From contig DVKT01000022.1 of NCBI GenBank assembly GCA_018715885.1, positions 24,119 through 88,118 of the forward strand: DNA of 64,000 nucleotides. The letters run 5' to 3'. Every line of letters begins with the position of its first letter. Positions within the stretch are counted from its first letter, which is position 1. The position numbers and the translations under genes were made by a program. Positions 46,421 through 61,468 of this stretch are shown piece by piece. Under the pieces are notes generated by a model. It made no database searches and had not been told where the DNA came from. It saw nothing but the letters and a program-made list of their open reading frames with translations. Source of the DNA: Candidatus Caccoplasma intestinavium. Its GTDB lineage: Bacteria > Bacteroidota > Bacteroidia > Bacteroidales > UBA11471.

Positions 46421-48448
46421 TTACCAAATCACAACCCGATCTTCGGGAGCCATATACATAGGCTGTTCGGGTGTAATTCCGAATGCCTGATAGAAAGTTT
46501 CGATATTCCGAAGTGCGGCATTCACACGCCATTTTCCCAATGAATGCGGATCTGTTTTTGTACGACGTAGTATTTCCTCATCTCGAATGTTTGACGCCCA
46601 TAAGTTTGCGTATGCCAAGTAAAAACGCTGCTCGGGAGTAAATCCGTCAATAATAGGCAACTTCTCTCCTTCCGTGGCATTTTCAAAAGCTGTGTATGCG
46701 ACACGTAAACCTCCCTGATCGGCAATATTCTCTCCCAAAGTGAAACGTCCGTCGGCATGTACTGTATCAATAACAATAATGCTACTATACTGATCGGCCA
46801 AAATATCGGCACGGAGATTGAACTGACGCGTATCTTCGGAAGTCCACCAATCACTAAGGTTGCCATCTTTATCGAATTGACGTCCCATATCATCGAAACC
46901 ATGCGTCATTTCATGTCCGATAACAACACCGATAGCTCCGTAATTGACGGCATCATCGGCATCGGCATAAAAGAATGGTGGCTGCAAAATACCTGCTGGA
47001 AAACAGATTTCATTGGTAGTCGGGTTATAATAAGCGTTCACGGTCTGCGGGCTCATATACCATATCGACTTATCGACCTCCTTGCCTACTTTTTCGAGCA
47101 TATAAGCCGTCTCGAATTTAGAGGCGTTTTTAAGATTTTCCCAGTAACTTTTCTCGGGAGATATTTCAAGGGCCGTATAATCGCGCCATTTGTCGGGATA
47201 CCCTATTTTGACCGTTATCGCCGCCAATTTTTCAAGAGCACGAGCTTTGGTTTCTTCGCTCATCCAATCGAGATGTTCGATGTGTTGTTGTAGCGCCTTC
47301 TGCAAATTCGCGACTAATTTCAACATACGATTTTTCGACTCCTGCGGAAAATATTTTTTTACATATATCTCACCCAATGCCTCACTCAAAACAGCATCGG
47401 TTGTTGCAAGCGAACGTTTCCATCGTAACCGGGGTTCTTGTTGACCGGATAAAGTCCGTCCGTAAAAATCGAATTTGGCCTCATAAAACTCATCGCTCAA
47501 ATACGACGCGGCACTATTCAATACCGTAAACGCCATATAGTCTTTTACTTCCTGTAATGAAAGCCGGTTATATAACTTGTCTACTCCATCGATAAATGCC
47601 AATTGTCCGGCATCGATGTATTGTAAGCTATCCACTCCCAACGATGTAAAAAAGCCATTCCAGTCAAAATCTTTTTCTCGCCTCAGAAAATCGGTATACG
47701 ACATTCTATTGTAATTTTTCTGCGGATCCCGTAATTCCACCCGGGTATAAGAAAGGCGAGCCAATTCGGTTTCTATTTTCATAACCGATTGAGCCGCTTT
47801 TCGGGCCGATTCGGGAGAATACCCTGCTAATGTAAACAAGCGCTCTATATATTTTATATAAGATTCCCTCAAAGCGATATTCGTACTATCTGCCGACAAA
47901 TAATAATCACGGTCTCCCATAGCAATACCGCCTTGATTAAGGCTCAACAAATTCACGCTGCTATTCTTGCTATCCGGCCCGACATATACAAAAAAGAACG
48001 GATATACCCCTTCGGCATGAAGCCGACCAATAACAGACGACATATTTTTCATATCCGTAATCCCATTTATCTCTTCCAAATCGGCAACCACGGGTGCAAA
48101 TCCTTCGGCATTGAGGCGTACACTGTCAAGCCCCAAATTGTACAAATCACTTACTTTGGCGGCAATACTTCCATCAATTTGTTTCTTCTCTGATAATTCT
48201 GTAACCAAAGTGTGCATTTGCTCCTCGCACAAATCAGCCAATCGATCGAATGAACCATAACGGCTATATTCGGGTTTCAACGGATTATTGGCAATCCAAC
48301 CACCACAAGCATACTGATAAAAATCGACTCCGGGCGCTACACTCAAATCAAAATTAGACTGGGATAGCGGTTTCTCTTTCTCTTGTTTTCCCGAGCAAGC
48401 CGAAAAAGTCAGTGCTGCCATTAACGATAACATCATTGTTTTTTTCAT
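46421..48448 (-). CDS. M13-family zinc metallopeptidase (PepO/endothelin-converting-enzyme-like) lipoprotein
   Basis: 675 aa. Lipobox LTFSAC, HExxH (VIGHEMTHGFD) and downstream ENIAD. Confidence 0.9.
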   Translation of the reverse strand: MKKTMMLSLMAALTFSACSGKQEKEKPLSQSNFDLSVAPGVDFYQYACGGWIANNPLKPEYSRYGSFDRLADLCEEQMHTLVTELSEKKQIDGSIAAKVSDLYNLGLDSVRLNAEGFAPVVADLEEINGITDMKNMSSVIGRLHAEGVYPFFFVYVGPDSKNSSVNLLSLNQGGIAMGDRDYYLSADSTNIALRESYIKYIERLFTLAGYSPESARKAAQSVMKIETELARLSYTRVELRDPQKNYNRMSYTDFLRREKDFDWNGFFTSLGVDSLQYIDAGQLAFIDGVDKLYNRLSLQEVKDYMAFTVLNSAASYLSDEFYEAKFDFYGRTLSGQQEPRLRWKRSLATTDAVLSEALGEIYVKKYFPQESKNRMLKLVANLQKALQQHIEHLDWMSEETKARALEKLAAITVKIGYPDKWRDYTALEISPEKSYWENLKNASKFETAYMLEKVGKEVDKSIWYMSPQTVNAYYNPTTNEICFPAGILQPPFFYADADDAVNYGAIGVVIGHEMTHGFDDMGRQFDKDGNLSDWWTSEDTRQFNLRADILADQYSSIIVIDTVHADGRFTLGENIADQGGLRVAYTAFENATEGEKLPIIDGFTPEQRFYLAYANLWASNIRDEEILRRTKTDPHSLGKWRVNAALRNIETFYQAFGITPEQPMYMAPEDRVVIW

Positions 48449-48478: not shown

Positions 48479-50446
48479 TTATTTCTCACTTACAGATACT
48501 TCTTTTCGCATTTTTTCCAGTATATCTGTCTGCTCGACCCATAATTCCGTTAAAGCTTCGGCATCTTTCTTCAAAGTTCCGTGTTTCATACATAAATCTA
48601 TATCGGCCATACCCTCTGGGGTAGCCAGACGAGCTTCGATAGCAGAGATTTCTGTATCAAGTTTTGCCAAACGCTGTTCGGTATCGGCAACAGCACGTTC
48701 CTGACGTTTCAATTTTCTCTGCCACTCTTTACGGGCTTCAAACGACAACTTATTTTCTACGGTAGAAGTCGATGTCTTTTCAGCCGGAATTTGAGATCGA
48801 TCCTGTGATCTCGATTTTACTTCCAACTCTTTTAACGAAGCCATTTTTTTCGCCTCCAAAAAATCATATATCCCGCCTAAATGTTCTCGAACTTTCTGCT
48901 GCCCGAACTCGTACACTTTCGATACCAATCCATCGAGAAATTCCCTATCGTGCGATACGACGATAAGAGTCCCGTCAAAATCTTTCAGAGCCTGTTTCAG
49001 AACATCTTTTGTACGCATATCGAGATGGTTGGTTGGTTCGTCGAGAATCAACAGATTGACAGGTTCGAGCAACAAACGAATCATGGCAAGCCGCGTCTTT
49101 TCTCCTCCTGACAAAACTTTCACCTTTTTTTCCGAAGCCTCTCCACCAAACATAAACGCCCCCAATATATCTCGTATTTTGGTACGAATATCACCGACAG
49201 CCACTCTATCTATCGTATCGAATACCGTTACAGATTCGTCAAGAAGCTGAGCTTGATTCTGCGCAAAATATCCGATTTTCACATTGTGTCCTATTTTCAA
49301 CTCTCCATCATAAGGAATCTCTCCCATGATACATTTTACAAGTGTAGATTTTCCCTCGCCGTTCTTCCCGACAAAAGCGACTTTTTCTCCTCGCTTGATT
49401 GTAAAATCGGCATGTGCAAAAACAACATGGTCGCCATAACTTTTCCCCATATTCTTTGCAATAACAGGGTAATCACCCGACCGAGGAGCCGGAGGAAATC
49501 GTAAACGCAATCGGGAATTGTCTACTTCGTCGACCTCTATGCGTTCTATTTTTTCCAGTTGTTTGATACGCGACTGTACTTGCACCGACTTTGTGGCTTT
49601 ATAACGGAAACGTTCGATAAATGCCTCGGTATCCTGTATCTGCTTCTGCTGATTCTCAAAGGCCCGCTGCTGCTGTTCAAGACGCTCGGCCCGTAACTGC
49701 ACATATTTAGAATAATTCACCCGATAATCGTAAATATGCCCAAGAGAAATTTCGATCGTACGATTGGTTACATTATCGATAAACGCCCGGTCGTGTGAAA
49801 CCAATACAACGGCATTGGCCCTTGTGGAAAGAAACATTTCAAGCCACTGTATCGATTCTATGTCCAAATGGTTAGTAGGCTCGTCGAGCAACAATACATC
49901 GGGGCGTTGCAAAAGCAATTTGGCCAATTCGATACGCATACGCCAGCCGCCACTGAACTCGGAAGTCGATCGGTTAAAATCACTCCGCAAAAAACCAAGT
50001 CCCAATAGCGTTTTTTCTATTTCGGCCTGATAATTACCGTTGCCCGACAGTGCAAGTTGTTCGCTTACCTGAGAAATACGGTCGATCAATTCCTGATACG
50101 AATCACTTTCATAATCGGTACGTTCGGCCAATTCTGTATTCATTTGATCAAGACGTTCCTGCATCTCCTGAATATGAGAAAACGCCAATGCCGCCTCCTC
50201 GGTAACCGTACGGCTATCAGAAAGTTGCATTTGCTGCGGCAAATACCCAATGGTTATATCTTTGGGCATATTTACCGATCCTGCCGACGGTTGTTGAAGC
50301 CCCGCTATGATTTTGAGCATAGTAGACTTGCCGGCACCGTTTTTACCGACCAATGCTATACGGTCTTTTTTATTAATGACATACGTTATCTTATCGAGCA
50401 ATGTAAACCCACCGAATTCTACGGTCAGACCCTCTATTGAAATCAT
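48479..50446 (-). CDS. ABC-F family ATPase (two ABC domains, no TM domain)
   Basis: Two Walker A loops (GKNGAGKST, GKNGEGKST) and two LSGG signatures (FSGGWRMR, LSGGEKTR). Coiled-coil C-terminus. Start taken at MISIEG; 50482 is an alternative. Confidence 0.9.
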   Translation of the reverse strand: MISIEGLTVEFGGFTLLDKITYVINKKDRIALVGKNGAGKSTMLKIIAGLQQPSAGSVNMPKDITIGYLPQQMQLSDSRTVTEEAALAFSHIQEMQERLDQMNTELAERTDYESDSYQELIDRISQVSEQLALSGNGNYQAEIEKTLLGLGFLRSDFNRSTSEFSGGWRMRIELAKLLLQRPDVLLLDEPTNHLDIESIQWLEMFLSTRANAVVLVSHDRAFIDNVTNRTIEISLGHIYDYRVNYSKYVQLRAERLEQQQRAFENQQKQIQDTEAFIERFRYKATKSVQVQSRIKQLEKIERIEVDEVDNSRLRLRFPPAPRSGDYPVIAKNMGKSYGDHVVFAHADFTIKRGEKVAFVGKNGEGKSTLVKCIMGEIPYDGELKIGHNVKIGYFAQNQAQLLDESVTVFDTIDRVAVGDIRTKIRDILGAFMFGGEASEKKVKVLSGGEKTRLAMIRLLLEPVNLLILDEPTNHLDMRTKDVLKQALKDFDGTLIVVSHDREFLDGLVSKVYEFGQQKVREHLGGIYDFLEAKKMASLKELEVKSRSQDRSQIPAEKTSTSTVENKLSFEARKEWQRKLKRQERAVADTEQRLAKLDTEISAIEARLATPEGMADIDLCMKHGTLKKDAEALTELWVEQTDILEKMRKEVSVSEK

Positions 50447-50739
50447 AATAGTCGTGTTCTTAAATTTTGCCTGTTTCCACAATAGGCATTCTCAAAACAC
50501 GGCAAAGGTACACATTTTTACCCGAAGAGCATATATCCGTTTTCGTATTAAAAAAATCAGGGAAGAATCCTTACCAATTTTATGCAAAGTTACAAAAGAC
50601 CTCCGGAGAAAAGCTGCCTCATTCAGCCATTCCTCATACAATACCTTGCACACCATCTGTAAGGCAAAGTTGTAGCGCCATCTCCTCATGCGTCGCCAAC
50701 CCGTACTTTAAGGACACTCTCCCCATATTTAAAAGAGAT

Positions 50740-52683
50740 TTACCACCACTGTTGTATACCGTTTTTATAAATAAAGATCCGTTCTTCTGCCCCTCCGCTC
50801 AAATTATGTAATATATACAATTTTCCTGCCGGAACTTTTTGAAAATCGAGATAATAATCGGTAGCGGTCTTTTCTCCCACACATTGCCAAGAAAAACCGT
50901 CCCAATACTCCAAACGATAATGATTCCCCGGAATAATAAAGTTTGTATCGCTTCGGGGTACATAGCGTATCCGCGTCAATGTGTGATCATTTCTTTCACC
51001 CAAATCAAGTGCTACATACCCTTCTACTTTCTTATCTTTTCTAAAATAGGTACTATAATCACCATCGACAGCTTGTTCCCAACCTGTTTCTATTTCATTC
51101 TCCGGGACGCCAAATGCAAATCCGTTCAAAACCTGTTCTTCTTCCGTACCTTGTTTCCGACCATAAAAAACTATTTCTGCCAAATTACCCTCACGATTAT
51201 CATCAAATTTCATTCGAACATATCTATATGGACGAGTAACATTTAAGATAGAATCGACTATATCTTGTGCATCTCTATCCAAAACAGTCATTACAATTTC
51301 CGAGTCTGAAAAATCTGGATTGTCCGAGACCTCCACTGTTGCTCCTAAAAGAGCCTTCGAAAACGAGGTAATACGTGTAAATTTCGGATATTTACGAGTC
51401 AGATGCATATCGACAAAACCGGACGTATCGGATCGGATATATTCTATTCTGCCTTCCTTGTCGAGAATAAAGGGCGGTGTCGCTGGGACAAAGGTACTCT
51501 CATCGTAATAACCAGCCATATAGCAAACATCGCCTATCATATTTTTGAAATAGAACTTGCCCTCGGACACCTGCCCGTAATCGACCGGCTGCCACTCCTT
51601 GTTATCGAACACGCAGATTACGCCATACGGGAACGATCTATATCTATCAGTAACCTCAGGATCACCGGCAACATCTACATCGAATGTCGGAAAATAAAGA
51701 TGCGATACATCGATCCTATCCGACGCCAATAAATACCCGGGAACATACTCGGCAGCATTTTCATTCACATCTTGTATCTCAAAAGTCTGGCGAAATATTT
51801 TAGCCGGTTTATAGGTAAAAAAATACCGTTTTCTATCCAAGGCATCGAAAGGAAGAAACTGGCCGCTATCTTTCAAAACGACCACCCACTCGTGCCCCTG
51901 ACTACGGTTTCCCCAATGATTGACATAATCTATCGTTGCCGGAATCCCACATGCTCTCAAAGTAAGTACATAATATTCGCTCATGTGCCGGCACGATCCA
52001 CGTCGAGCCTGTTCCACCTTACTCCTCGGCAAAGAGATGGGATATCCCCACATCAATCGGCTATTTTTATACTTACGTACTCTATCGAACTCATGATACA
52101 ACTCCTTGATAAGACGGTCATCGTTGATAATAAGCGAATCTCGGATTCTCCGGAATTGCTCGAAATGCCTTTTACGATACGGTTCCAAAGGTTCATTTCC
52201 TATACGGTACGGCAACACGTACCGGCAAAAAAGGTCGAAATCTCGGGATATGAAATCCGGAACTGTCTGCCACGCCTCAAAAGCCGTCTCTATCTCCTCT
52301 ATCAAAAACTCTGCCGAAACGGTTTCCGTATCATACTGTCGTCCTAAATACAAAGGTTGCAGTCGTCCGTATTTGTGCAACAGATTCCACCAACATTGCT
52401 CGACAAGAGCAGGATCGGATTCGGAATTACCACTCCTATATAATCTTTCATATAGCGAAAATATTGTATCATAGCGTTCTATCTGTTTATCCCTATACCC
52501 AAATTTCCCGGGCATATTTTCTATTAAAAATTCCGCAGCCACCCTCTTCAAAGAATCATTGGCGTAAAAATCCAACACTTTTTCCACCTCATCATTTGGT
52601 AAAACCGGAGCTTCCAATACATTACAGCTCCATAAAATTTGCATCAAAAGCAAAATCGAAAAAATACATCTTGATATACTCAT
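50740..52683 (-). CDS. Transglutaminase-like cysteine-protease-fold lipoprotein with C-terminal discoidin (F5/8 type C)-like domains
   Basis: Signal MSISRCIFSILLLMQILWSC. Cys-His-Asp core (RGSCRHMSEY, GHEWVVV, FDALD). The C-terminal ...NLAEIVFYG is discoidin-like. Start moved from 52743 to 52683. Confidence 0.75.
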   Translation of the reverse strand: MSISRCIFSILLLMQILWSCNVLEAPVLPNDEVEKVLDFYANDSLKRVAAEFLIENMPGKFGYRDKQIERYDTIFSLYERLYRSGNSESDPALVEQCWWNLLHKYGRLQPLYLGRQYDTETVSAEFLIEEIETAFEAWQTVPDFISRDFDLFCRYVLPYRIGNEPLEPYRKRHFEQFRRIRDSLIINDDRLIKELYHEFDRVRKYKNSRLMWGYPISLPRSKVEQARRGSCRHMSEYYVLTLRACGIPATIDYVNHWGNRSQGHEWVVVLKDSGQFLPFDALDRKRYFFTYKPAKIFRQTFEIQDVNENAAEYVPGYLLASDRIDVSHLYFPTFDVDVAGDPEVTDRYRSFPYGVICVFDNKEWQPVDYGQVSEGKFYFKNMIGDVCYMAGYYDESTFVPATPPFILDKEGRIEYIRSDTSGFVDMHLTRKYPKFTRITSFSKALLGATVEVSDNPDFSDSEIVMTVLDRDAQDIVDSILNVTRPYRYVRMKFDDNREGNLAEIVFYGRKQGTEEEQVLNGFAFGVPENEIETGWEQAVDGDYSTYFRKDKKVEGYVALDLGERNDHTLTRIRYVPRSDTNFIIPGNHYRLEYWDGFSWQCVGEKTATDYYLDFQKVPAGKLYILHNLSGGAEERIFIYKNGIQQWW

Positions 52684-52708
52684 ATTCAATTCTCCTTTAA
52701 ACGTACGA

Positions 52709-54715
52709 TCAAATCGCCAATGACTTTTTATACCAAACTTCAAATAAAAAACGATATTGCTTCCATATCAAATCCTCTATATTTTTCTCCTCTGCCGGCT
52801 TATAATCATTTCCTGTAAAAATTCCCTGTGCCGTTACTCTTCCCATACGATTATATTGGTACGCCTTATCTACTAGACCTTTTCTCTCATATATACACGC
52901 CAAGTTAAACCACACTCTCGACAGATTTGGCAATTGTTCATTCGAGCTAAACAAATAAAATTCGGCCGTTTCAAAATCGCCAAGCTGCATAGCAATACTT
53001 CCATATTTAGCCAAATCAATAGGATTAGAAGGCTTCTGCGAAATATGTATCAACAAAAAATTTACAACTCGTTCAGTAAATTCTTTGTCGTAAAACCGAA
53101 GTTTTTCCCAATAGGTCGTTTTTAAAATATTCGGTTCTTGCAATACGACAGAAACAAACATTTCTATTGCTTTATCTACAAATCCTTTCTGCCGATATAT
53201 TTTATATAATTCCCATTTGAAAATAAGTTTATCAGGATAAACTGATATCCATTTTTCCAGTTCTTTTAAAAACGTATTTTCCGCTTCCTTAATGGAATAT
53301 AAGCGCACATAAAATGATAAGTGAATATCCAATGGGCTTTTCTTTAAGGCTTTTTCAAAATAACAAAGAGATCTTTCAACATTTTTATCCCGCAAAAAAA
53401 TTGCTCTGTTGACCATAAAAGAAAAACATTCCTTACTATTCCAGTTATAAAGAACCAGTCCAACCACATATGTCATCACTATACAAGGCAAGAAACAAAG
53501 TATGACTGGAAAATTCTTCTTCTCTCTTTCACATTCTACCCTTTTACTTTGTAAAAAAGCTACAAGGAAAAGGGTTGATAATTGTATAACCTTCGAATCG
53601 AACATTGTCGAAAAGGTCTGCTCCCTAACAAAAAAAGCCATTAAAAACAACGATATTATCCATAATTTCCGTTCTTTTCTCTTTATCAATAAAAAAACAA
53701 TAGACCAACAAAGTATCAAATATATACACACACCACAATAACCATACTCAATAAAAAGTTTTGAAATTGTATTGGGTGCATATGTAGTGTAAGAATCAAC
53801 CCTTTTATCACCAACCTGATAATAATCTTTCGCCAAAGTATAGTTATTCAGACCTACACCCCAAGGATATTTTTTCAAGATATCGGAGGTAATTGACATG
53901 GCCTTTACTCTCCCATCTATACTTCTTTGTTGAGAAACAGTCTTATTTATTTCAAAAACTTTTTTCGTTTCATGAGGAAATAAGAAAAAAATTCCTATTA
54001 TAAAAATAGCACAACTACCCAACAGAAATTTTTCCCGATCTACAAATAATCTCTTTCTTTCCAGTATAAACAAAACAATGGCAAACACCAGTGCCGATAA
54101 ATATATTCCTCTCGAAAATGACAATAACAATTGACACAATACCATACAGCCAGTTATAGCAGCAAGAGCCTTGACTTTTCGATTCTCAACATAAAAATAT
54201 GCGATTGCCAATATGCCCCCGAATAACCATTGTAAACTACTCCATACATTATTGGAAATTCCCAATGGAGCATACAAAAACCTGAAATCATACAACGAAG
54301 AAGAACCCGCATTATGGACAGTCTCGGAAAACAGATAATATATATAGAAAGATATAGTTAACAAAACAAAAATGCATACGGTAAATATAGAAAGAAGGTA
54401 ACCCGCAAATTTTCCATAATAGGTAAAAACATACCTCAAAATAAAGTAAGCAAATATATTTGTTATCAAATAAACGAGCATCACATTAGTATTTATCGTA
54501 TTAACTGATGGTAAAAAAAGCCCGTACGCTCCTAACAAAATAATACAAATATCACAAACACCCACTTTCAAAGGCCGTATAAATATGAATATCATTAAGC
54601 TAAAAACCAATAACAACAATTGTACAAAATACGTATCCTTGATATAAAAAAAATCAGCAAGGAACACAAATGTCAATAAACAGCAACTCGATATGCAAAC
54701 CAACTGTTTCATCAT
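52709..54715 (-). CDS. Polytopic Wzy_C (O-antigen ligase/polymerase-like) membrane protein with a C-terminal TPR-like domain
   Basis: 668 aa with more than 10 hydrophobic segments. Wzy_C-type loop LSFSRGIYLSALVF. The C-terminal ~250 aa are TPR-like helical repeats. ATGA overlap with the upstream gene. Confidence 0.6.
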   Translation of the reverse strand: MMKQLVCISSCCLLTFVFLADFFYIKDTYFVQLLLLVFSLMIFIFIRPLKVGVCDICIILLGAYGLFLPSVNTINTNVMLVYLITNIFAYFILRYVFTYYGKFAGYLLSIFTVCIFVLLTISFYIYYLFSETVHNAGSSSLYDFRFLYAPLGISNNVWSSLQWLFGGILAIAYFYVENRKVKALAAITGCMVLCQLLLSFSRGIYLSALVFAIVLFILERKRLFVDREKFLLGSCAIFIIGIFFLFPHETKKVFEINKTVSQQRSIDGRVKAMSITSDILKKYPWGVGLNNYTLAKDYYQVGDKRVDSYTTYAPNTISKLFIEYGYCGVCIYLILCWSIVFLLIKRKERKLWIISLFLMAFFVREQTFSTMFDSKVIQLSTLFLVAFLQSKRVECEREKKNFPVILCFLPCIVMTYVVGLVLYNWNSKECFSFMVNRAIFLRDKNVERSLCYFEKALKKSPLDIHLSFYVRLYSIKEAENTFLKELEKWISVYPDKLIFKWELYKIYRQKGFVDKAIEMFVSVVLQEPNILKTTYWEKLRFYDKEFTERVVNFLLIHISQKPSNPIDLAKYGSIAMQLGDFETAEFYLFSSNEQLPNLSRVWFNLACIYERKGLVDKAYQYNRMGRVTAQGIFTGNDYKPAEEKNIEDLIWKQYRFLFEVWYKKSLAI

Positions 54716-55920
54716 GATTCTTTATATACACGTATCTTCTTGTAAAATGGATATATGATCCGGTACAACATATAAAATGCCAATACCAAGAATAATAATT
54801 GAAGAACAATTTGTTGTACATTCGACCAGTCCGGAGTTTGGCGATATGACAATTCTCTTATCAATAGACTGAAACGATCAGGAAAAGTTTCATAAAACCG
54901 TACGAAAAACAAAGGTAAAACATAGAAAAAGTAAAATCCAAAAAACAAATTGACTACAACCGTATAAACTACTAATCCAGATTTTGCTCCCCGGGATAAC
55001 GCAAATAAATAGGGTCGATGCTCTACTTTTTTATTCTTTATTTTACTCAAAACATATCCAACCCATTCTGTCCCCTTTTTTCGTAAATTGGCAACCCCCA
55101 AAACATCTGACAAAATCCAATATCCGTCAAATTTGAAAAATGGATTCAATGTAATAACAAAATTCATATTCATCACCACAATTATATATTTGAAAAATGG
55201 GTAATGAAAGAAAAAATAAGCTATAAGAAACGGTATTAATAAAACCATCTGAAAATACACACCACCTATATTGATCAGAAAACGCTCCCTTCGAGTAAGT
55301 TTCCATGCCTGAGAAACATCGGTATAGAAAACAGGAATATTAAGATATAATCCGAAGCCAATATTTCCATGAGGAATCTGAAAATAATGACAAGCTGATG
55401 CATGCCCCAATTCATGTATCAACGACGAAAAAATAAAAAACAGGAATAATCCTATTACTGTATAGATACTCAGATCAACGTGTATAGTTTCAGTATAAAA
55501 TTCTGTAAAATGAATAAAATCCAGAATAATAAATATACCGACAATCGCCATCATCACACGGCTATCGAAAAGTATTTTCAGAGAAGAAGCGCACTTTCTT
55601 ACTTTCTCGGACGAAATCAAATCGTGCCGATAAAGAAATACTCCCTTTTTAGTCGAGGATACCTTTCCCTCCGCAATTTTCGACGACAGCATTTCCAAAA
55701 ATTCGATGACATCGTCTTTCGACGGATGTCCATCATGACTTTCTACATAAGTATCCACTGCCACTTCATCGCAACCATTTTCTTTGAGGTAATTCAGCAA
55801 CTCCGCCGCATCTTTTCCTATTTCAAAGAAATGATTATTAAATTCCATCAAAAAAGTTGTATGCAACGACGAAGTAGAAAAAGGTCCCACTGTTATACGC
55901 ATCAAATCAAAATTATCCAT
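54712..55920 (-). CDS. PqqD-like (RRE-like) N-terminal domain fused to an M50/site-2-protease-like intramembrane metalloprotease
   Basis: 402 aa. HELGH at residues 169-173 within a TM segment and NPFFKFDG at 259-266 (M50 NPxxxxDG). The N-terminal ~85 aa (FFEIGKDAAELLNYLKENG...DDVIEFLEMLSSK) resemble PqqD. Confidence 0.7.
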   Translation of the reverse strand: MDNFDLMRITVGPFSTSSLHTTFLMEFNNHFFEIGKDAAELLNYLKENGCDEVAVDTYVESHDGHPSKDDVIEFLEMLSSKIAEGKVSSTKKGVFLYRHDLISSEKVRKCASSLKILFDSRVMMAIVGIFIILDFIHFTEFYTETIHVDLSIYTVIGLFLFFIFSSLIHELGHASACHYFQIPHGNIGFGLYLNIPVFYTDVSQAWKLTRRERFLINIGGVYFQMVLLIPFLIAYFFFHYPFFKYIIVVMNMNFVITLNPFFKFDGYWILSDVLGVANLRKKGTEWVGYVLSKIKNKKVEHRPYLFALSRGAKSGLVVYTVVVNLFFGFYFFYVLPLFFVRFYETFPDRFSLLIRELSYRQTPDWSNVQQIVLQLLFLVLAFYMLYRIIYPFYKKIRVYKES

Positions 55921-55926
55921 AACCGA

Positions 55927-58239
55927 CTATTCTAGAATTGTTGACTGATTAATATCTTTTATTTCTGTACTATGGAATTTGTGTTTTTTCTTACCAAACG
56001 TAAAACGATAGTTGACCGTCAACTGGAACATATTGTCATAGGTGCGTTCATAACGCATCGCATTGATTTTTGAATATGACAATCTTTCATACCAACCTTT
56101 AAACGTTGTTTTCATAAAAGGACTCAATGTCCTGAATTGGATATTCCAACCTTTTATGGAGTAACCGACATTCAAATCAAAACCTCCCGACGATTGAATT
56201 TTCGTCCCAGATTTTTCTATATAAGAACGTTTAGGGGCATACCCTGCCGAAACCGACCAGCCTTTATGAAAAAAATAACAATCGATTGACACATTATACG
56301 AATCACCATATATCGTTTTCCAATATGCTAACTTTTCATGCTTATAGTTTCCATATACCTCAACCATCAATTTTTGGGGTATAATACTATATTGCAACTG
56401 TAATTCATAACTTTGCGATATAGAATTACCACTACTTCGCTGCTGACAGACAAACATATCTCTGTCAGCAGCGTATTCGATATTGGTATAAGGTGAACGG
56501 TAATCTCCTCCGAATATAAAACCCGCACCCACAAAGAATCGATCTACTACCCAAGTATAAATAGCTCCGGCTTGATATTTTCGCCAATCTTTCAACCCGG
56601 GATTTCCTACGGAAATTTCATAAATATTACGACGGTACTCCGTAGCCGTGAGGTTGGTAATACTGGGCGAAGAACCTGATGTTTCGGCAACTATCTGTAA
56701 CATATGTGTTTTATACATATATGTCATTTGCAATGATGGTACAAACATATGATCGAAATAGGTATCAGCACCTGTTTGGCTGAATGATAAACGTTCTGCT
56801 AATCGCAAACGCAAATTCAAACGATTTTTTACCTTGTAATTATAGGTAAGATATAATTGTGTGTTGCCTCGGTTCAAATATACGTCGGATACCACACCTT
56901 CACGCGCGTTGCGATCGTCGGTGCGGGTAAAGTCCTGATTGGCTTCTACATTAAATGACGAACGATTCTTGAATGTTTTGGTATAATTGATTTTAAACCG
57001 TCCATACCAACTCGATTCGTCGGTTGCATTATCATAGGCCGAAGTTATTACATCATCGATTCGATAAACATACCAACGTTTGTAGTCGTTATTACCATAA
57101 CTGCCATACCAATCCATACGCAAACGCTGGTCGTTTTTCAACGCACATTCATACCAAAACGACAATGCCGGAGACAAACCGGTCGAATGCCGGTTTTCTT
57201 GCATAGTATAGGTTTCGGGGGTATTGCTGAATGTCTGACTATTCCATACATCATTCTCTCTCAAGTTTTGATTCAAACGAAAAGAAGAATAGACACTCTG
57301 TTTTTTATCTTTATATATGTAATTGAAATAAGAACGCAAATTATTACTGTTTTTTTGTGAAGGTAGTTCTTGGGTCGTATTCACATTCGTTCCATCAGGA
57401 AAACCGTAAGCCGTTTCTGTATAATTTTCGCTATTGTAGTTACTAAAACAATCATAGCTGTCGGCCACAGAAAGGGCAAATTCCGACTTCCCTTGAAAAT
57501 ATTGAGCCGTCCCCCGAGCACTACCTGTAGGTTTATTTAAGTTATGCTGACCATTGACTGCAACCGTACCGGCATAGTCCCGCTCTTTCAGTACATAGTC
57601 AAACACAACATCAGCTTTGGGATAGTCGGTATTACCATTGGTATAGAAATCGATTCGCTTGATATCTCGCGGATTCAAATTGTTTACCTCGTCTTCGGTG
57701 GCTTCCCGTCCGTCAATGCAGAACAATATCTCTCGTCCCATATAAGTCGGTTTCTGGTCATATATGCCGATGCTCACACCGGGTATGGTCATTGTTCTCA
57801 ACAAGCTGTTTCGGTCATACACATGACGTAACTGTTCACGAGTAGGGTATATCATCGTTTTTTCAGCAGTGTGCACCGTATGATTACCCGTAACAATAAC
57901 CTCCTGTATGAGTGCAGAACTCCGGCTCAAAGTAATATCGCCAAGCCGCACCAACTTTTCTTCGGTAGGATTCAATATAAGGGTCATCTCTTTATAACCG
58001 AGATAGCCTATTTGCAGACGAAACGCCTGTTTCCCCCCCGATAGTTTCAATCTAAAATCTCCTTTACTGTCAGTTATCATACTAGCAACAAGAAGAGTAT
58101 CGGAAGTAAAACAACATACCGTTGCCCCTATCAGGTCATTCCGCTCACTATCCCGCACATGACCTTCCACCTCGATGGTCTGTGCCATAACAGATGGAAT
58201 AGTTGTAAATATGACGATAAAAAAAACGATATATTTCAT
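55927..58239 (-). CDS. TonB-dependent-receptor-like outer membrane beta-barrel (CarboxypepD_reg + plug-like + barrel)
   Basis: Signal MKYIVFFIVIFTTIPSVMAQ. VEGHVRDSERNDLIGATV...DSKGDFRL is carboxypeptidase-regulatory-like. A plug-like segment is present (LLRTMTIPGVSI...CIDGRE...IKRIDFY). The barrel is aromatic-rich and alternating. The track start at 58263 is an alternative. Confidence 0.8.
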   Translation of the reverse strand: MKYIVFFIVIFTTIPSVMAQTIEVEGHVRDSERNDLIGATVCCFTSDTLLVASMITDSKGDFRLKLSGGKQAFRLQIGYLGYKEMTLILNPTEEKLVRLGDITLSRSSALIQEVIVTGNHTVHTAEKTMIYPTREQLRHVYDRNSLLRTMTIPGVSIGIYDQKPTYMGREILFCIDGREATEDEVNNLNPRDIKRIDFYTNGNTDYPKADVVFDYVLKERDYAGTVAVNGQHNLNKPTGSARGTAQYFQGKSEFALSVADSYDCFSNYNSENYTETAYGFPDGTNVNTTQELPSQKNSNNLRSYFNYIYKDKKQSVYSSFRLNQNLRENDVWNSQTFSNTPETYTMQENRHSTGLSPALSFWYECALKNDQRLRMDWYGSYGNNDYKRWYVYRIDDVITSAYDNATDESSWYGRFKINYTKTFKNRSSFNVEANQDFTRTDDRNAREGVVSDVYLNRGNTQLYLTYNYKVKNRLNLRLRLAERLSFSQTGADTYFDHMFVPSLQMTYMYKTHMLQIVAETSGSSPSITNLTATEYRRNIYEISVGNPGLKDWRKYQAGAIYTWVVDRFFVGAGFIFGGDYRSPYTNIEYAADRDMFVCQQRSSGNSISQSYELQLQYSIIPQKLMVEVYGNYKHEKLAYWKTIYGDSYNVSIDCYFFHKGWSVSAGYAPKRSYIEKSGTKIQSSGGFDLNVGYSIKGWNIQFRTLSPFMKTTFKGWYERLSYSKINAMRYERTYDNMFQLTVNYRFTFGKKKHKFHSTEIKDINQSTILE

Positions 58240-58347
58240 TATATTATCATATAATGTATACAAAAATTGAGGGTAATCAAGATTTATACTGAATATAATA
58301 CCATATATAATTTAAAAATATAGATCTCTCACACCCTCAACTTTTAT

Positions 58348-58569
58348 TTATAAATCAAATTCTTGGCAATATTCTGAACAGTATTGCTTACATTTTCCAT
58401 TACATATACAAATGCATTCATCCGAAGAATCAGAACTATCCATATTCAACAACGCCGCTATTGCTAACGGGTCTGTTTCCAATCGTTGTTCCAGCTCATC
58501 TAAATAAAAAGCTGGCAACTCTTCGTTCAGAGAACGAAGTTCATTTTTCTTCTCTTTCATAATTTTCAT
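58348..58569 (-). CDS. Candidate RiPP precursor peptide: acidic helical leader plus Cys-rich CXXX-repeat core
   Basis: 73 aa. All 6 Cys lie at residues 52, 54, 56, 60, 64 and 68 (CICICNGKCKQYCSEYCQEFDL). The leader is ...PAFYLDELEQRLETDPLAIAALLNMDSSDSSDE. Starts 15 nt after the radical SAM gene stop. Confidence 0.75.
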   Translation of the reverse strand: MKIMKEKKNELRSLNEELPAFYLDELEQRLETDPLAIAALLNMDSSDSSDECICICNGKCKQYCSEYCQEFDL

Positions 58570-58584
58570 TTTTAAGTTAATAAA

Positions 58585-59925
58585 TCAGTTATTTAATTGC
58601 AGATCTGCATACGCTTTATTGACAGCATAACGCACAATATCTTCCATACGAAGACAATGATGTCGTTTCAGATTATGAGCCGGACATCCGCATCCGCATA
58701 ACAAAGCATATTTGCACACGGTACAAGCCTGAATCTCTGATATATGCGCCTTATGCCAATTGTCGAGAGGTTCCTGACTCCAAGAAACACCGCCAGCACT
58801 CGCATAATGACCTATGCAGTGTTCGGGCCGGCCTACGACTTCCCAGCAAGGATAGATATTACCATATGGATCAAAAACAAAGCTTCCAGTCTGCGCTCTA
58901 CAAAAAATAGGATGAAAAGACAGAGGTTTTTTCCTCATAATGGCTTGATAAAGTTTATCAAACACGCCATAATCCTGATATTCAAATTGAGATTTAGAAA
59001 CACTATGCTTTTGAATAAATTCTCGTTGCGTCAAGTAATGATAAGTATTGTCCGTTTCGGATTCAGAATAATCAACCAACAATGCCGAATTCATTGAAAA
59101 AAGCGGATTTTCGACATACTGTAAACGCTCGAAAATCGCTTGTAACTCTTTCAAATCTTCGATATTCTCCCTATCTGTATTAACCCGTACAGAAACCCGA
59201 ACACCTCTCTTCAAAGCCAAACCGATATTATCCAAAATACGGTCGAATGTAGGGAAACCCTGGCAATGTATGCGACGACTATTATGGTGGTCACGAACAC
59301 CATCTACCGTGATTTGCAAAAAAGCGATGCCGTCGGGTGAAAGTAAGTCTTCATAAGCAACCAAATCATAACCATTTGTAATAGCAGAAAATGTAAAACC
59401 TAACCTTTTGCCTCTATCAATAATATAAGATATGATTTTTCTGTTTTGTACTAAAAGAGGTTCCCCTCCATATAATGTAATATTTTTAAAAAAATACTTT
59501 TCGTTAGGTTCTATATAAAAAATTGCTTCAAAAGCTTTATCTACCATCTCAGGAGTAAATACCATTTTATCCCTTCCTACTCCTTTCTCAAAACAATATG
59601 GGCAACGGAAATTACAATCGTAAGTAATGACAAATGTAAAACCTTTTTTCAACAACATATCTCTACGGAATAAAATATCGGCCATGTATGCAACATAATC
59701 ATACTCTTCTTGCTCCGCTTTTTCAGTAATATATCCGCGTTGTATCAATGCAGACCATGTTTTTGCAGAATAAGGAAATTCACTCTCTGTAAACGTATCG
59801 TGACTATTGATAAAAGAAACGATTTTATCATTCACTAAATCAATAGCTCCTGTATAACCGTGAATCAACATATGATCATTACTACCATCGACCTTTACAT
59901 CGGTCATATAAGAAGACTTTCTCAT
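58585..59925 (-). CDS. Radical SAM/SPASM-domain peptide-modifying enzyme (putative maturase of the adjacent peptide)
   Basis: 446 aa. CX3CX2C at C104/C108/C111 (YDCNFRCPYCF). C-terminal auxiliary-cluster Cys pattern (CRAQTGSFVFDPYGNIYPC...C...CTVCKYALLCGCGC). ~95-aa N-terminal extension. Confidence 0.9.
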   Translation of the reverse strand: MRKSSYMTDVKVDGSNDHMLIHGYTGAIDLVNDKIVSFINSHDTFTESEFPYSAKTWSALIQRGYITEKAEQEEYDYVAYMADILFRRDMLLKKGFTFVITYDCNFRCPYCFEKGVGRDKMVFTPEMVDKAFEAIFYIEPNEKYFFKNITLYGGEPLLVQNRKIISYIIDRGKRLGFTFSAITNGYDLVAYEDLLSPDGIAFLQITVDGVRDHHNSRRIHCQGFPTFDRILDNIGLALKRGVRVSVRVNTDRENIEDLKELQAIFERLQYVENPLFSMNSALLVDYSESETDNTYHYLTQREFIQKHSVSKSQFEYQDYGVFDKLYQAIMRKKPLSFHPIFCRAQTGSFVFDPYGNIYPCWEVVGRPEHCIGHYASAGGVSWSQEPLDNWHKAHISEIQACTVCKYALLCGCGCPAHNLKRHHCLRMEDIVRYAVNKAYADLQLNN

Positions 59926-59962
59926 GATATTAAATTTTTACATTAATCAATAATATTTTTTG

Positions 59963-59993
59963 CAAATATAGAAAATTTATTTTATAAAACAAA
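59963..59993 (-). promoter_or_regulatory. Bacteroides-type promoter (TTTG-N19-TATATTTG) for the radical SAM/peptide operon
   Basis: On the minus strand, TTTG lies at 59993..59990, followed by a 19-nt spacer and TATATTTG at 59970..59963. This is 38 nt upstream of ATG 59925. Confidence 0.45.
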
Positions 59994-60280
59994 TAATTTA
60001 TCATCAATTATCTTTCAAATATAAAAAACAAGCATAAATAAATTTCAGAATATTTATACACACAAAATAATACATTTATTATTGTTGTATATAAACTATT
60101 GCATTTCCAATAAGCATACAACTGATGTTATTCGATTTTCTATAATCTACTCGATAAAGGCTTCTCATTCTTTGAAAAATTTATCACCCGTTTTCCGCAA
60201 CGATAAAAAATATACAGAAATATTTTCTTCCACACTTCCCCTCGTGCTATCTTTGTCGTAATCTTATAAAATTATCTGTC

Positions 60281-61468
60281 ATGGAGAAGACATGGAGATG
60301 GTTTGGTCCCAACGATCCGATTACGCTCGACATGTTACGGCAAATCGGTGTGGAAGGTATCGTTACCGCCCTGCACGATGTTCCTAACGGAGATGTCTGG
60401 GAAATCGAGAATATATCCCGCAGGAAAGCCTATATCGAATCGCACGGCCTGCGATGGTCGGTCGTAGAAAGCCTGCCCGTATGCGAAGCCGTCAAATATG
60501 GCGGAGCAGAAAGAGACCGGCTCATCGAGAACTATAAAAACAGTCTGGCCAATTTGGGTCGATGCGGTATAAAAACCGTATGCTACAACTTTATGCCCGT
60601 CATCGACTGGATACGCACCGACCTGCAACACCCGTGGGCCGACGGTACCACATCGCTCTACTTCGACCGGGCGCGTTTCGCCTACTTCGACCTTCACATT
60701 CTCGAACGCCCCGGAGCAGAAAAAGATTATCCCGATCCGCTCCTCGCGAAAGTCGAAGAGATGGGTAAAGTCATCAGCGAGAAAGAGAAAAACGACCTCA
60801 TCGAGACAATCATCGTAAAGACACAAGGATTTGTCAACGGGAATATCAAAGAGGGAGATGAAAATCCGGTAAAAATATTCAAAAAACTATTGTCGCACTA
60901 CGAGGGCATTGACCGTGCAGCCCTCCGCGAAAACATGCGGTACTTCTTGTCGGCCATCATGCCCGTGTGCGAAACATTCGGCATAAATATGTGCGTGCAC
61001 CCCGACGACCCGCCTTTCCAAGTACTGGGTCTTCCCCGCATCGTAACCGACGAAGCAGACATCGCATGGATACTCCATGCCGTCGACAACCCGCACAACG
61101 GACTCACTTTTTGCGCCGGGTCGCTCAGTGCCGGATCGCAAAACGACACACGGGAACTGGCCCGGAAATTTGCCAAACGAACACACTTCGTGCACCTGCG
61201 GAGTACAGATGTATTGCCTAACGGAAACTTCATCGAAAGCTCCCACCTATCGGGGCGCGGACATCTCATCGACTTGATACGTGTTTTTGAAAAAGAGAAT
61301 CCGCACCTTCCTATGCGCGTCGATCATGGACGCACCATGTTGGGGGACGAAAATCAGAACTACAATCCCGGATATTCTTTTCACGGTCGCATGCTGGCAC
61401 TGGCGCAAGTCGAAGGTATGATGGCCGTTGTGAAAGACGAACTACAAAAACAAATTTACATACCATGA
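60281..61468 (+). CDS. uxuA: Mannonate dehydratase
   Basis: 395 aa. MEKTWRWFGPNDPITL is a hallmark UxuA N-terminus. A TATCTTTG box at 60248..60255 lies 25 nt upstream. Confidence 0.95.
   Translation: MEKTWRWFGPNDPITLDMLRQIGVEGIVTALHDVPNGDVWEIENISRRKAYIESHGLRWSVVESLPVCEAVKYGGAERDRLIENYKNSLANLGRCGIKTVCYNFMPVIDWIRTDLQHPWADGTTSLYFDRARFAYFDLHILERPGAEKDYPDPLLAKVEEMGKVISEKEKNDLIETIIVKTQGFVNGNIKEGDENPVKIFKKLLSHYEGIDRAALRENMRYFLSAIMPVCETFGINMCVHPDDPPFQVLGLPRIVTDEADIAWILHAVDNPHNGLTFCAGSLSAGSQNDTRELARKFAKRTHFVHLRSTDVLPNGNFIESSHLSGRGHLIDLIRVFEKENPHLPMRVDHGRTMLGDENQNYNPGYSFHGRMLALAQVEGMMAVVKDELQKQIYIP

Follow-up and report, generated by a model that had tools for sequence, protein, structure and literature searches.

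A radical SAM/SPASM enzyme with a predicted RRE-like N-terminal domain and its putative cysteine-rich substrate in a peptide cassette of gut Bacteroidales

A stretch of 64,000 nucleotides from Candidatus Caccoplasma intestinavium (Bacteroidales; assembly GCA_018715885.1, contig DVKT01000022.1, positions 24,119 to 88,118), referred to here as the window, carries a gene for a radical S-adenosylmethionine (rSAM)/SPASM enzyme and, just downstream of it, an open reading frame (ORF) for a small cysteine-rich peptide. The enzyme is very probably a maturase of this adjacent peptide, guided by an N-terminal domain that is predicted to adopt the fold of a recognition element (RRE) for peptides that are made on ribosomes and modified after translation (RiPPs). 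By analogy with its closest relatives, its chemistry may be the formation of Cys thioethers, as in sactipeptides and ranthipeptides, a proposal whose prospects we judge to be about even. As a whole, the data are best explained by a RiPP cassette of gut Bacteroidales in which the enzyme would act as a leader-guided, thioether-forming modifying enzyme, and this combined reading is considered reasonably likely.

The enzyme belongs to a family with more than 1000 full-length homologs, and its conservation was judged on an alignment of 38 of them (43–73% identity). A protein identical to it is annotated from a metagenome-assembled genome of Candidatus Caccoplasma intestinavium, a species assigned to the Bacteroidaceae. 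Translation is assigned to M1 (MRKSSY...), because homologs keep R2, S4 and Y6. An earlier note on this DNA, made from the sequence alone, had quoted an N-terminus, MTDVKVDG, that begins at M7 and is not the true start, although its cysteine numbering fits M1. Cysteines occupy positions 104, 108, 111, 221, 342, 360, 370, 401, 404, 410, 412, 414 and 424. The CX3CX2C motif recognized in the earlier note (C104, C108, C111) is invariant. The C-terminal pattern that it described, C342-x17-C360-x9-C370 followed by C401-xx-C404-x5-C410-x-C412-x-C414, is also present, but C370 and C412 vary among the aligned homologs, while C424, which lies beyond that pattern, is invariant. The conserved residues C342, C360, C401, C404, C410, C414 and C424 form the canonical seven-Cys set, in keeping with the SPASM/twitch-like region with auxiliary clusters proposed at the time. 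Profile searches agree with this domain assignment, with 59 bits for PF04055 Radical_SAM in Pfam (cut-off 29.5) and 52.7 bits for TIGR04085 SPASM in NCBIfam (cut-off 27), placing the enzyme in the radical SAM superfamily and the SPASM subfamily. These features support the prediction that the SPASM domain holds two auxiliary [4Fe-4S] clusters. Having seven rather than eight invariant cysteines is consistent with an open-coordination auxiliary cluster like that of the SCIFF/thermocellin ranthipeptide synthase CteB, whereas both auxiliary clusters of anSMEcpe, an anaerobic sulfatase maturase (anSME), are fully Cys-ligated.

CteB is also the closest relative of known structure, both by sequence (E 3.7e-11) and by fold. 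A full-length AlphaFold2 (AF2) model of the enzyme, with a predicted local distance difference test (pLDDT) score of 89.7, has CteB as its best fold match with the N-terminal domain (N-domain) included (491 aligned columns, E 3e-16, template modelling (TM) score 0.68), followed by TigE. By comparison, the anSME alignment spans about 390 columns, covering the core and SPASM domain only. Like the window enzyme, CteB (PDB 5WGG/5WHY) combines an N-terminal RRE, an rSAM triosephosphate isomerase (TIM) barrel and a seven-Cys SPASM domain, its C-x17-C and CxxCx5CxxxC spacings are identical in the HMMER alignment, and its substrate is Cys-rich too. The two enzymes differ in that they share only 16–18% identity in structural alignment, their leader and core families are unrelated, and CteB is clostridial and has other accessory genes. 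The window enzyme is not a member of the SCIFF maturases, as TIGR03974 scores below its cut-off and the precursor is unrelated to SCIFF.

Among the NCBIfam profiles, the scores were 129.3 bits for CefB (Cys-every-fifth, NF038107; equivalog cut-off 600), 117.5 for TIGR04463 (cut-off 525), 110.6 for PapB (NF047865; cut-off 340), 108.7 for FlmE/OhkG, 102.5 for Clo7bot (TIGR04334; cut-off 600), 69.9 for the SCIFF maturases (cut-off 425) and 58.9 for the anSMEs (TIGR03942; cut-off 349.45). The nearest profiles are peptide maturases throughout, most of them with Cys-rich substrates. CefB, TIGR04463 and Clo7bot, the best-scoring bioinformatic families, have substrates with periodic Cys and are, to our knowledge, biochemically uncharacterised. 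As the CefB profile aligns from residue 3, its N-domain is homologous in position to that of the window enzyme. The profile of PapB, the freyrasin ranthipeptide maturase, aligns from residue 95 only, so the N-domain lies outside it. PapB is likewise an rSAM/SPASM enzyme, and the cysteines in the core that it modifies are regularly spaced; its substrate PapA has repeated CX3D, and the core in the window ends in C-x3-D (CQEFD), but CX3D is not general in cores of this family. The window enzyme may work like the CteB/PapB class and stands outside every named equivalog family.

The N-terminal extension of about 95 residues, which the earlier note had suggested to be RRE-like, proved to be conserved, with about 92 residues ahead of the rSAM core, and structure prediction upholds the suggestion at the level of fold. 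Modelled alone (residues 1–92, pLDDT 96.5), the domain has β-strands at residues 7–11, 17–22 and 28–32 and α-helices at 33–41, 54–63 and 71–91, which is the arrangement of an RRE; the third helix is long and continues into the rSAM core. A Foldseek search of the PDB with the isolated domain gave RRE domains as all of its nine best matches (TM 0.36–0.57). The N-domains of TigE and CteB matched with TMq values of 0.57 and 0.46, and the lasso-peptide RRE TbiB1 with bound leader matched with TM 0.53/0.57 (prob 1.0). All matches ranked below the top nine have prob ≤0.38; those that come next are unrelated, and the LynD RRE appears at rank 29. The βββ-ααα winged helix is common to PqqD, TbiB1, LynD, the TigE N-domain and the predicted domain. 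Its invariant residues (H22, G23, Y24, G26, A27, D29, R63, Y65, T67 and E74) group on the β2–β3 hairpin and around α2/α3, beside the canonical RRE groove in the model. A profile of the domain searched against 1.84 billion representative proteins found 504 clusters at 50% identity, and in all 150 of these that were listed the domain sits at the extreme N-terminus (residues ~1–95), either of enzymes of about 440–580 residues or of short proteins that may be fragments of short contigs. Together, model and fold matches support an RRE fold for the N-terminal ~92 residues.

The precursor peptide encoded next to the enzyme has a leader (residues ~1–45) containing SLN...ELEQRLETDPL and a core, ...DECICICNGKCKQYCSEYCQEFDL, in which six cysteines at positions 52, 54, 56, 60, 64 and 68 are spaced CxCxCx3Cx3Cx3C. 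ORFs for such precursors, one or two per locus, occupy the same position in Prevotella, Paraprevotella clara, Segatella copri and other Bacteroidales, and a profile built from eight of them retrieved more than 1000 homologous peptides. Neither Pfam nor NCBIfam holds a match to this family, and all homologs that carry a name are annotated as 'hypothetical protein'. In these peptides a common leader, '..SLN..L.D.F...ELExRLETDPL..GL.D', precedes hypervariable Cys-rich cores, and a conserved leader joined to a hypervariable core is the classic signature of a RiPP. Across 110 cores, the number of cysteines ranges from 2 to 9 with a mode of 4, CxC, Cx3C, Cx5C and Cx4C are the most frequent spacings, and the last Cys lies 3–9 residues from the end of the peptide. 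A Glu in the pattern 'last Cys-x-Glu' occurs in 23 of these cores only.

The N-domain and the leader family are found together across distant relatives. The N-domain signature HGY[TSN]GAxD and the ELExRLE leader family co-occur in 14 of 16 loci, the two exceptions being truncated contigs, and this pairing extends over Bacteroidales, Balneola, Melioribacteraceae and a metagenome-assembled genome of the Clostridia. In relatives from the Selenomonadaceae, the N-domain motif reads NGLYGAxD and the leaders are of the Nif11 type with a terminal GG; Cys-rich cores recur there, as they do in relatives at 27–36% identity generally, whose Nif11/GG leaders are unrelated. To judge from these sequences, the clade has changed its leader type and kept Cys-rich substrates, with Cys emerging as the constant element of what it modifies. 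This co-variation of N-domain motif and leader type is the best indirect evidence at hand that the N-domain may read the leader. The enzymes of the Selenomonadaceae and related loci (L012–L014 and L019–L021; 29–30% identity) are 535–551 residues long and have a C-terminal extension.

A mechanism can be proposed from these features. The RRE-like domain would recognize the SLN..L....ELExRLETDPL leader of the precursor, and the CX3CX2C cluster would cleave SAM to a 5'-deoxyadenosyl radical that abstracts a hydrogen atom from residues of the Cys-rich core. In CteB, the leader lies between β3 and α3 of the RRE and an auxiliary cluster has a free iron in contact with a Cys of the substrate (PMC8326336, a review). 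The core cysteines of the window peptide would probably be presented in the same way, on the open iron of the first SPASM auxiliary cluster, and could then capture carbon radicals to give several intramolecular thioether rings per peptide, with either sactionine or ranthionine regiochemistry. The membrane HExxH protease of the cassette would subsequently remove the leader, and the product would leave through the outer-membrane module, which is a barrel or a MacAB-TolC system; the order of these steps is likewise a proposal. The thioether chemistry is suggested because the nearest named profiles are maturases of Cys-rich substrates or thioether maturases and the closest structure is CteB.

Several results weigh against this interpretation. 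Pfam searches with 26 N-domains gave no PqqD match (PF05402), even at E≤10, an NCBIfam search with the domain gave no match, and an N-domain profile run against all PDB sequences found no RRE, its only match being a chance one to NisC. Similarity to PF05402 or to the RREs in the PDB is therefore undetectable by sequence, and the RRE assignment rests on predicted fold and context. The Foldseek E-values of the isolated domain are themselves weak (0.01–0.3), although modest E-values are usual for a domain of 90 residues. No named NCBIfam maturase family is reached at its equivalog cut-off, either by the window enzyme or by six more distant clade members, all of which score far below, so that family membership gives no ground for assigning a function. 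Other RRE-rSAM-SPASM enzymes that share this fold catalyze different reactions, such as cyclopropylglycine formation by TigE and Lys-Trp C–C bond formation by SuiB, and an enrichment analysis of the 110 cores revealed no acceptor residue at a fixed place relative to Cys. Biochemical data on a member of the clade were not found in the literature searched. Finally, SuiB holds its leader in the catalytic barrel and outside the RRE (PMC8326336), which means that a domain with this fold need not be one that binds the leader. Allowing for the sub-cut-off scores, the C–C chemistry of TigE and SuiB, the lack of a fixed acceptor and the SuiB RRE, confidence in an RRE-guided maturase is strong and the view of its thioether chemistry evenly balanced.

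The alternative that survives best accepts that the enzyme matures the adjacent peptide as a RiPP and assigns it a different reaction, which could be epimerisation, C–C or C–O cross-linking or oxidation of Cys or Ser, the cysteines forming disulfides or binding metal after export. The precedent of TigE and SuiB and the absence of a conserved acceptor position both favor it, as do the occurrence of cores with two Cys only and the resemblance of the HExxH protease to those of the epipeptide (YydH/LiaK) and daptide systems. However, Cys is the sole constant in otherwise hypervariable cores, including those of distant homologs with unrelated leaders, the best-scoring named families act on Cys-rich substrates or form thioethers, and the seven-Cys SPASM domain resembles that of CteB. 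Non-thioether chemistry is accordingly judged unlikely, yet it deserves to be taken seriously.

A second alternative concerns the N-domain, which might be RRE-like in fold and serve as a lid, in dimerisation or as a structural cap, the leader being recognized elsewhere. Such a role would fit the missing PqqD sequence signal and the SuiB precedent, and several rSAM RiPP enzymes are known to work independently of a leader (PMC8326336). On the other hand, the motif of the N-domain tracks the leader family from phylum to phylum and changes with the leader type, and the invariant residues lie beside the canonical RRE groove, all of which makes a domain that does not bind the leader improbable. An anaerobic sulfatase maturase converting Cys or Ser to formylglycine, or another SPASM enzyme that modifies proteins and to which the small ORF is irrelevant, is extremely improbable: Bacteroidales do encode many sulfatases and anSMEs are among the fold and sequence matches, but TIGR03942 falls far short of its cut-off, anSMEcpe (PDB 4K36-4K39) shares the rSAM core and SPASM fold and has no N-terminal domain, and the small ORF belongs to a family of more than 1000 members that is strictly linked to the rSAM enzyme. 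The earlier note had already argued against this role from the lack of a sulfatase gene nearby; Pfam and NCBIfam searches of the seven genes at 50740–61468 indeed found no sulfatase-family gene, the remainder of the 64-kb window not having been screened.

The features of the locus are collected in Table 1. The rSAM gene is the first of the cassette and is followed by the precursor, an outer-membrane barrel protein, an intramembrane HExxH protease, a Wzy_C/TPR protein and a transglutaminase-like lipoprotein. The barrel protein has a PDB match to the N-domain of a SusC homolog and orthologs in loci L001, L006 and L083, of which the one in L083 (10805–13093) bears PF14905 OMP_b-brl_3; judging by its family name, it likely exports the product across the outer membrane. 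The HExxH protease scored 85 bits with the NCBIfam daptide_HExxH profile (cut-off 300) and 46.5 bits with YydH/LiaK (cut-off 225). It is the steadiest neighbor of the rSAM clade, kept in its most distant members and also outside Bacteroidota, and its family makes it a candidate leader peptidase. For the Wzy_C/TPR protein (48 bits for Wzy_C in Pfam, cut-off 31.7, plus TPR matches) and the transglutaminase-like protein (28.7 bits for Transglut_core in Pfam, cut-off 23), roles may likewise be suggested from the family names.

Table 1. Features of the rSAM/SPASM locus, with positions numbered from the first letter of the window
Feature	Position	Strand	Basis
Radical SAM/SPASM enzyme, putative peptide maturase, three domains	58585..59925	minus	ORF, 446 residues
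Predicted RRE-like winged-helix domain, residues 1–92, βββ-ααα	59650..59925	minus	AF2, Foldseek, leader co-occurrence
CX3CX2C (C104, C108, C111), SAM-binding [4Fe-4S] cluster	59593..59616	minus	Invariant in alignment
SPASM domain, seven invariant Cys, for two predicted auxiliary [4Fe-4S] clusters	58654..58902	minus	TIGR04085, Cys invariance
Precursor peptide, 73 residues, MKIMKEKKNELRSLNEELPAFYLDELEQRLETDPLAIAALLNMDSSDSSDECICICNGKCKQYCSEYCQEFDL	58348..58569	minus	ORF 15 nt downstream of rSAM gene
Outer-membrane β-barrel protein with N-terminal CarboxypepD_reg-like domain	55927..58263	minus	Pfam CarboxypepD_reg, sub-threshold
Polytopic membrane HExxH metalloprotease (HELGH)	54712..55920	minus	NCBIfam sub-threshold matches
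Wzy_C (O-antigen-ligase-like) membrane domain with C-terminal TPR repeats	52709..54715	minus	Pfam
Transglutaminase-core (Cys-protease-like) protein with lipoprotein-type signal	50740..52743	minus	Pfam
Bacteroidetes-type promoter-like motif TTTG-N19-TATATTTG	59963..59993	minus	Consensus match only
RNA hairpin followed by U-run, between precursor and barrel genes	58262..58352	minus	Folding
uxuA, cassette flank	60281-61468	plus	

Much of the cassette is retained in other Bacteroidales. The set of rSAM enzyme, precursor, HExxH protease, Wzy_C/TPR protein and transglutaminase-like protein recurs in Paraprevotella (L002), Segatella copri (L006), Butyricimonas virosa (L081) and a locus on a 3.6-Mb contig (L083). 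The Prevotella locus L001 has the rSAM enzyme, precursor, HExxH protease and Wzy_C/TPR protein, and the stretch examined gave no match to a transglutaminase-like gene. The Wzy_C/TPR protein is kept in L001, L002, L006, L081 and L083; transglutaminase-like orthologs occur in L002, L006, L010, L081 and L083, varying in position between upstream and downstream of the rSAM gene. The outer-membrane module is exchangeable, as most loci have a CarboxypepD_reg + OMP_b-brl_3 barrel, and B. virosa L081 (14161–19407) has two MacB/FtsX permeases, an ATP-binding cassette (ABC) ATPase, a TolC-like OEP and a membrane-fusion protein instead. In epipeptide (YydFGHIJ) and daptide clusters, a peptide-modifying enzyme is paired with a polytopic HExxH membrane protease, as it is here. 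These clusters differ in lacking the Wzy_C/TPR, transglutaminase-like and outer-membrane barrel proteins, and their cores are not Cys-rich. In addition, YydG is not known as an enzyme with the full SPASM/RRE make-up.

The accessory genes also raise the idea that the recurring gene set defines a new RiPP class of gut Bacteroidales in which the cross-linked peptide, instead of being merely secreted, is processed further in the periplasm, yielding an envelope-attached or glyco-conjugated product. The Wzy_C-like enzyme, which resembles O-antigen ligases and oligosaccharyltransferases, would then glycosylate the peptide or ligate it to a glycan, lipid or cell-surface carrier, and the transglutaminase-like lipoprotein would act as a protease or transpeptidase. 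This extension is speculative and its correctness is doubtful.

Taken by itself, the architecture is no surprise, as maturases that combine RRE, rSAM and SPASM domains are well known. This large clade is unnamed in Pfam and NCBIfam. The literature searched contained no description of the leader family or of the cassette, which may be mentioned in rSAM-RiPP atlases or under generic antiSMASH 'ranthipeptide' calls, and a search for OhkG, FlmE and CefB returned unrelated acronyms only. A 2023 RiPP-mining study of Bacteroidales described clusters with GG leaders and peptidase-containing ABC transporters (PCAT), whose architecture is unlike that of the window cassette (PMC10352776). The clade is found in abundant human and animal gut genera, including Segatella copri, Prevotella, Paraprevotella, Bacteroides and Butyricimonas, and its products could be antagonistic, signalling or envelope-associated molecules. 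Because its cores are hypervariable and Cys-rich and its accessory genes for the periplasm and outer membrane are unusual, it offers a tractable entry to an unexplored class of Bacteroidales peptides. It also provides a clean setting in which to study how a divergent RRE recognizes a leader.

Some further observations concern individual peptides and genes. Two precursors with a shared leader and different cores occur in L002 (7449–7995), L004 (43 and 6376) and L011 (3757–4160), and one of the two in L004 lies several kb upstream of the enzyme. In the 88-residue precursor P0121, the whole leader is tandemly duplicated (MTKNVIKSVNNDLFDQAYMEDLEERIETAPVATSQT repeated) ahead of a single core, so that this may be either an artefact of assembly or a natural peptide with two leaders. 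One Segatella precursor was found on 867 contigs. The transglutaminase-like ORF as listed has a TTG start overlapping the upstream gene; its true start is likely an internal ATG 20 codons in (MSISRC...LWSC), which would give the lipoprotein-type signal MSISRCIFSILLLMQILWSC. The cytoplasmic N-terminal ~90 residues of the HExxH protease (55650–55920, minus strand) look βββ-ααα and PqqD/RRE-like by eye in ten orthologs, for instance '..LIDGTRTVDEIAE..' in L016. A second RRE at this position was not supported by Pfam, NCBIfam, a PDB profile search or an hhalign comparison with the profile of the rSAM N-domain (prob 0.5%).

On the flank opposite uxuA lie two ORFs of about 670 residues, 48479–50482 and 46421–48448, which by sequence resemble an ABC ATPase and an M13-type peptidase. 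Comparison with the transglutaminase-like protein rejected the idea that they are its paralogs, and they are probably outside the cassette. The promoter-like motif lies upstream of the rSAM gene, its end 37 nt from the ATG; a pattern search of the window found 11 matches to the Bacteroidetes-type motif against 3.3 expected, and scans for sigma-70 promoters and terminators gave chance-level results. The hairpin between the precursor and barrel genes has a minimum free energy of −24.9 kcal/mol (z = −4.47; none of 200 shuffled sequences folds as well) and could act as a partial terminator, setting how much rSAM/precursor transcript is made relative to the downstream genes. The cassette (~52000–60000) has a G+C content of 0.33–0.35, compared with 0.42–0.50 in its flanks, which hints that it may have been acquired horizontally.

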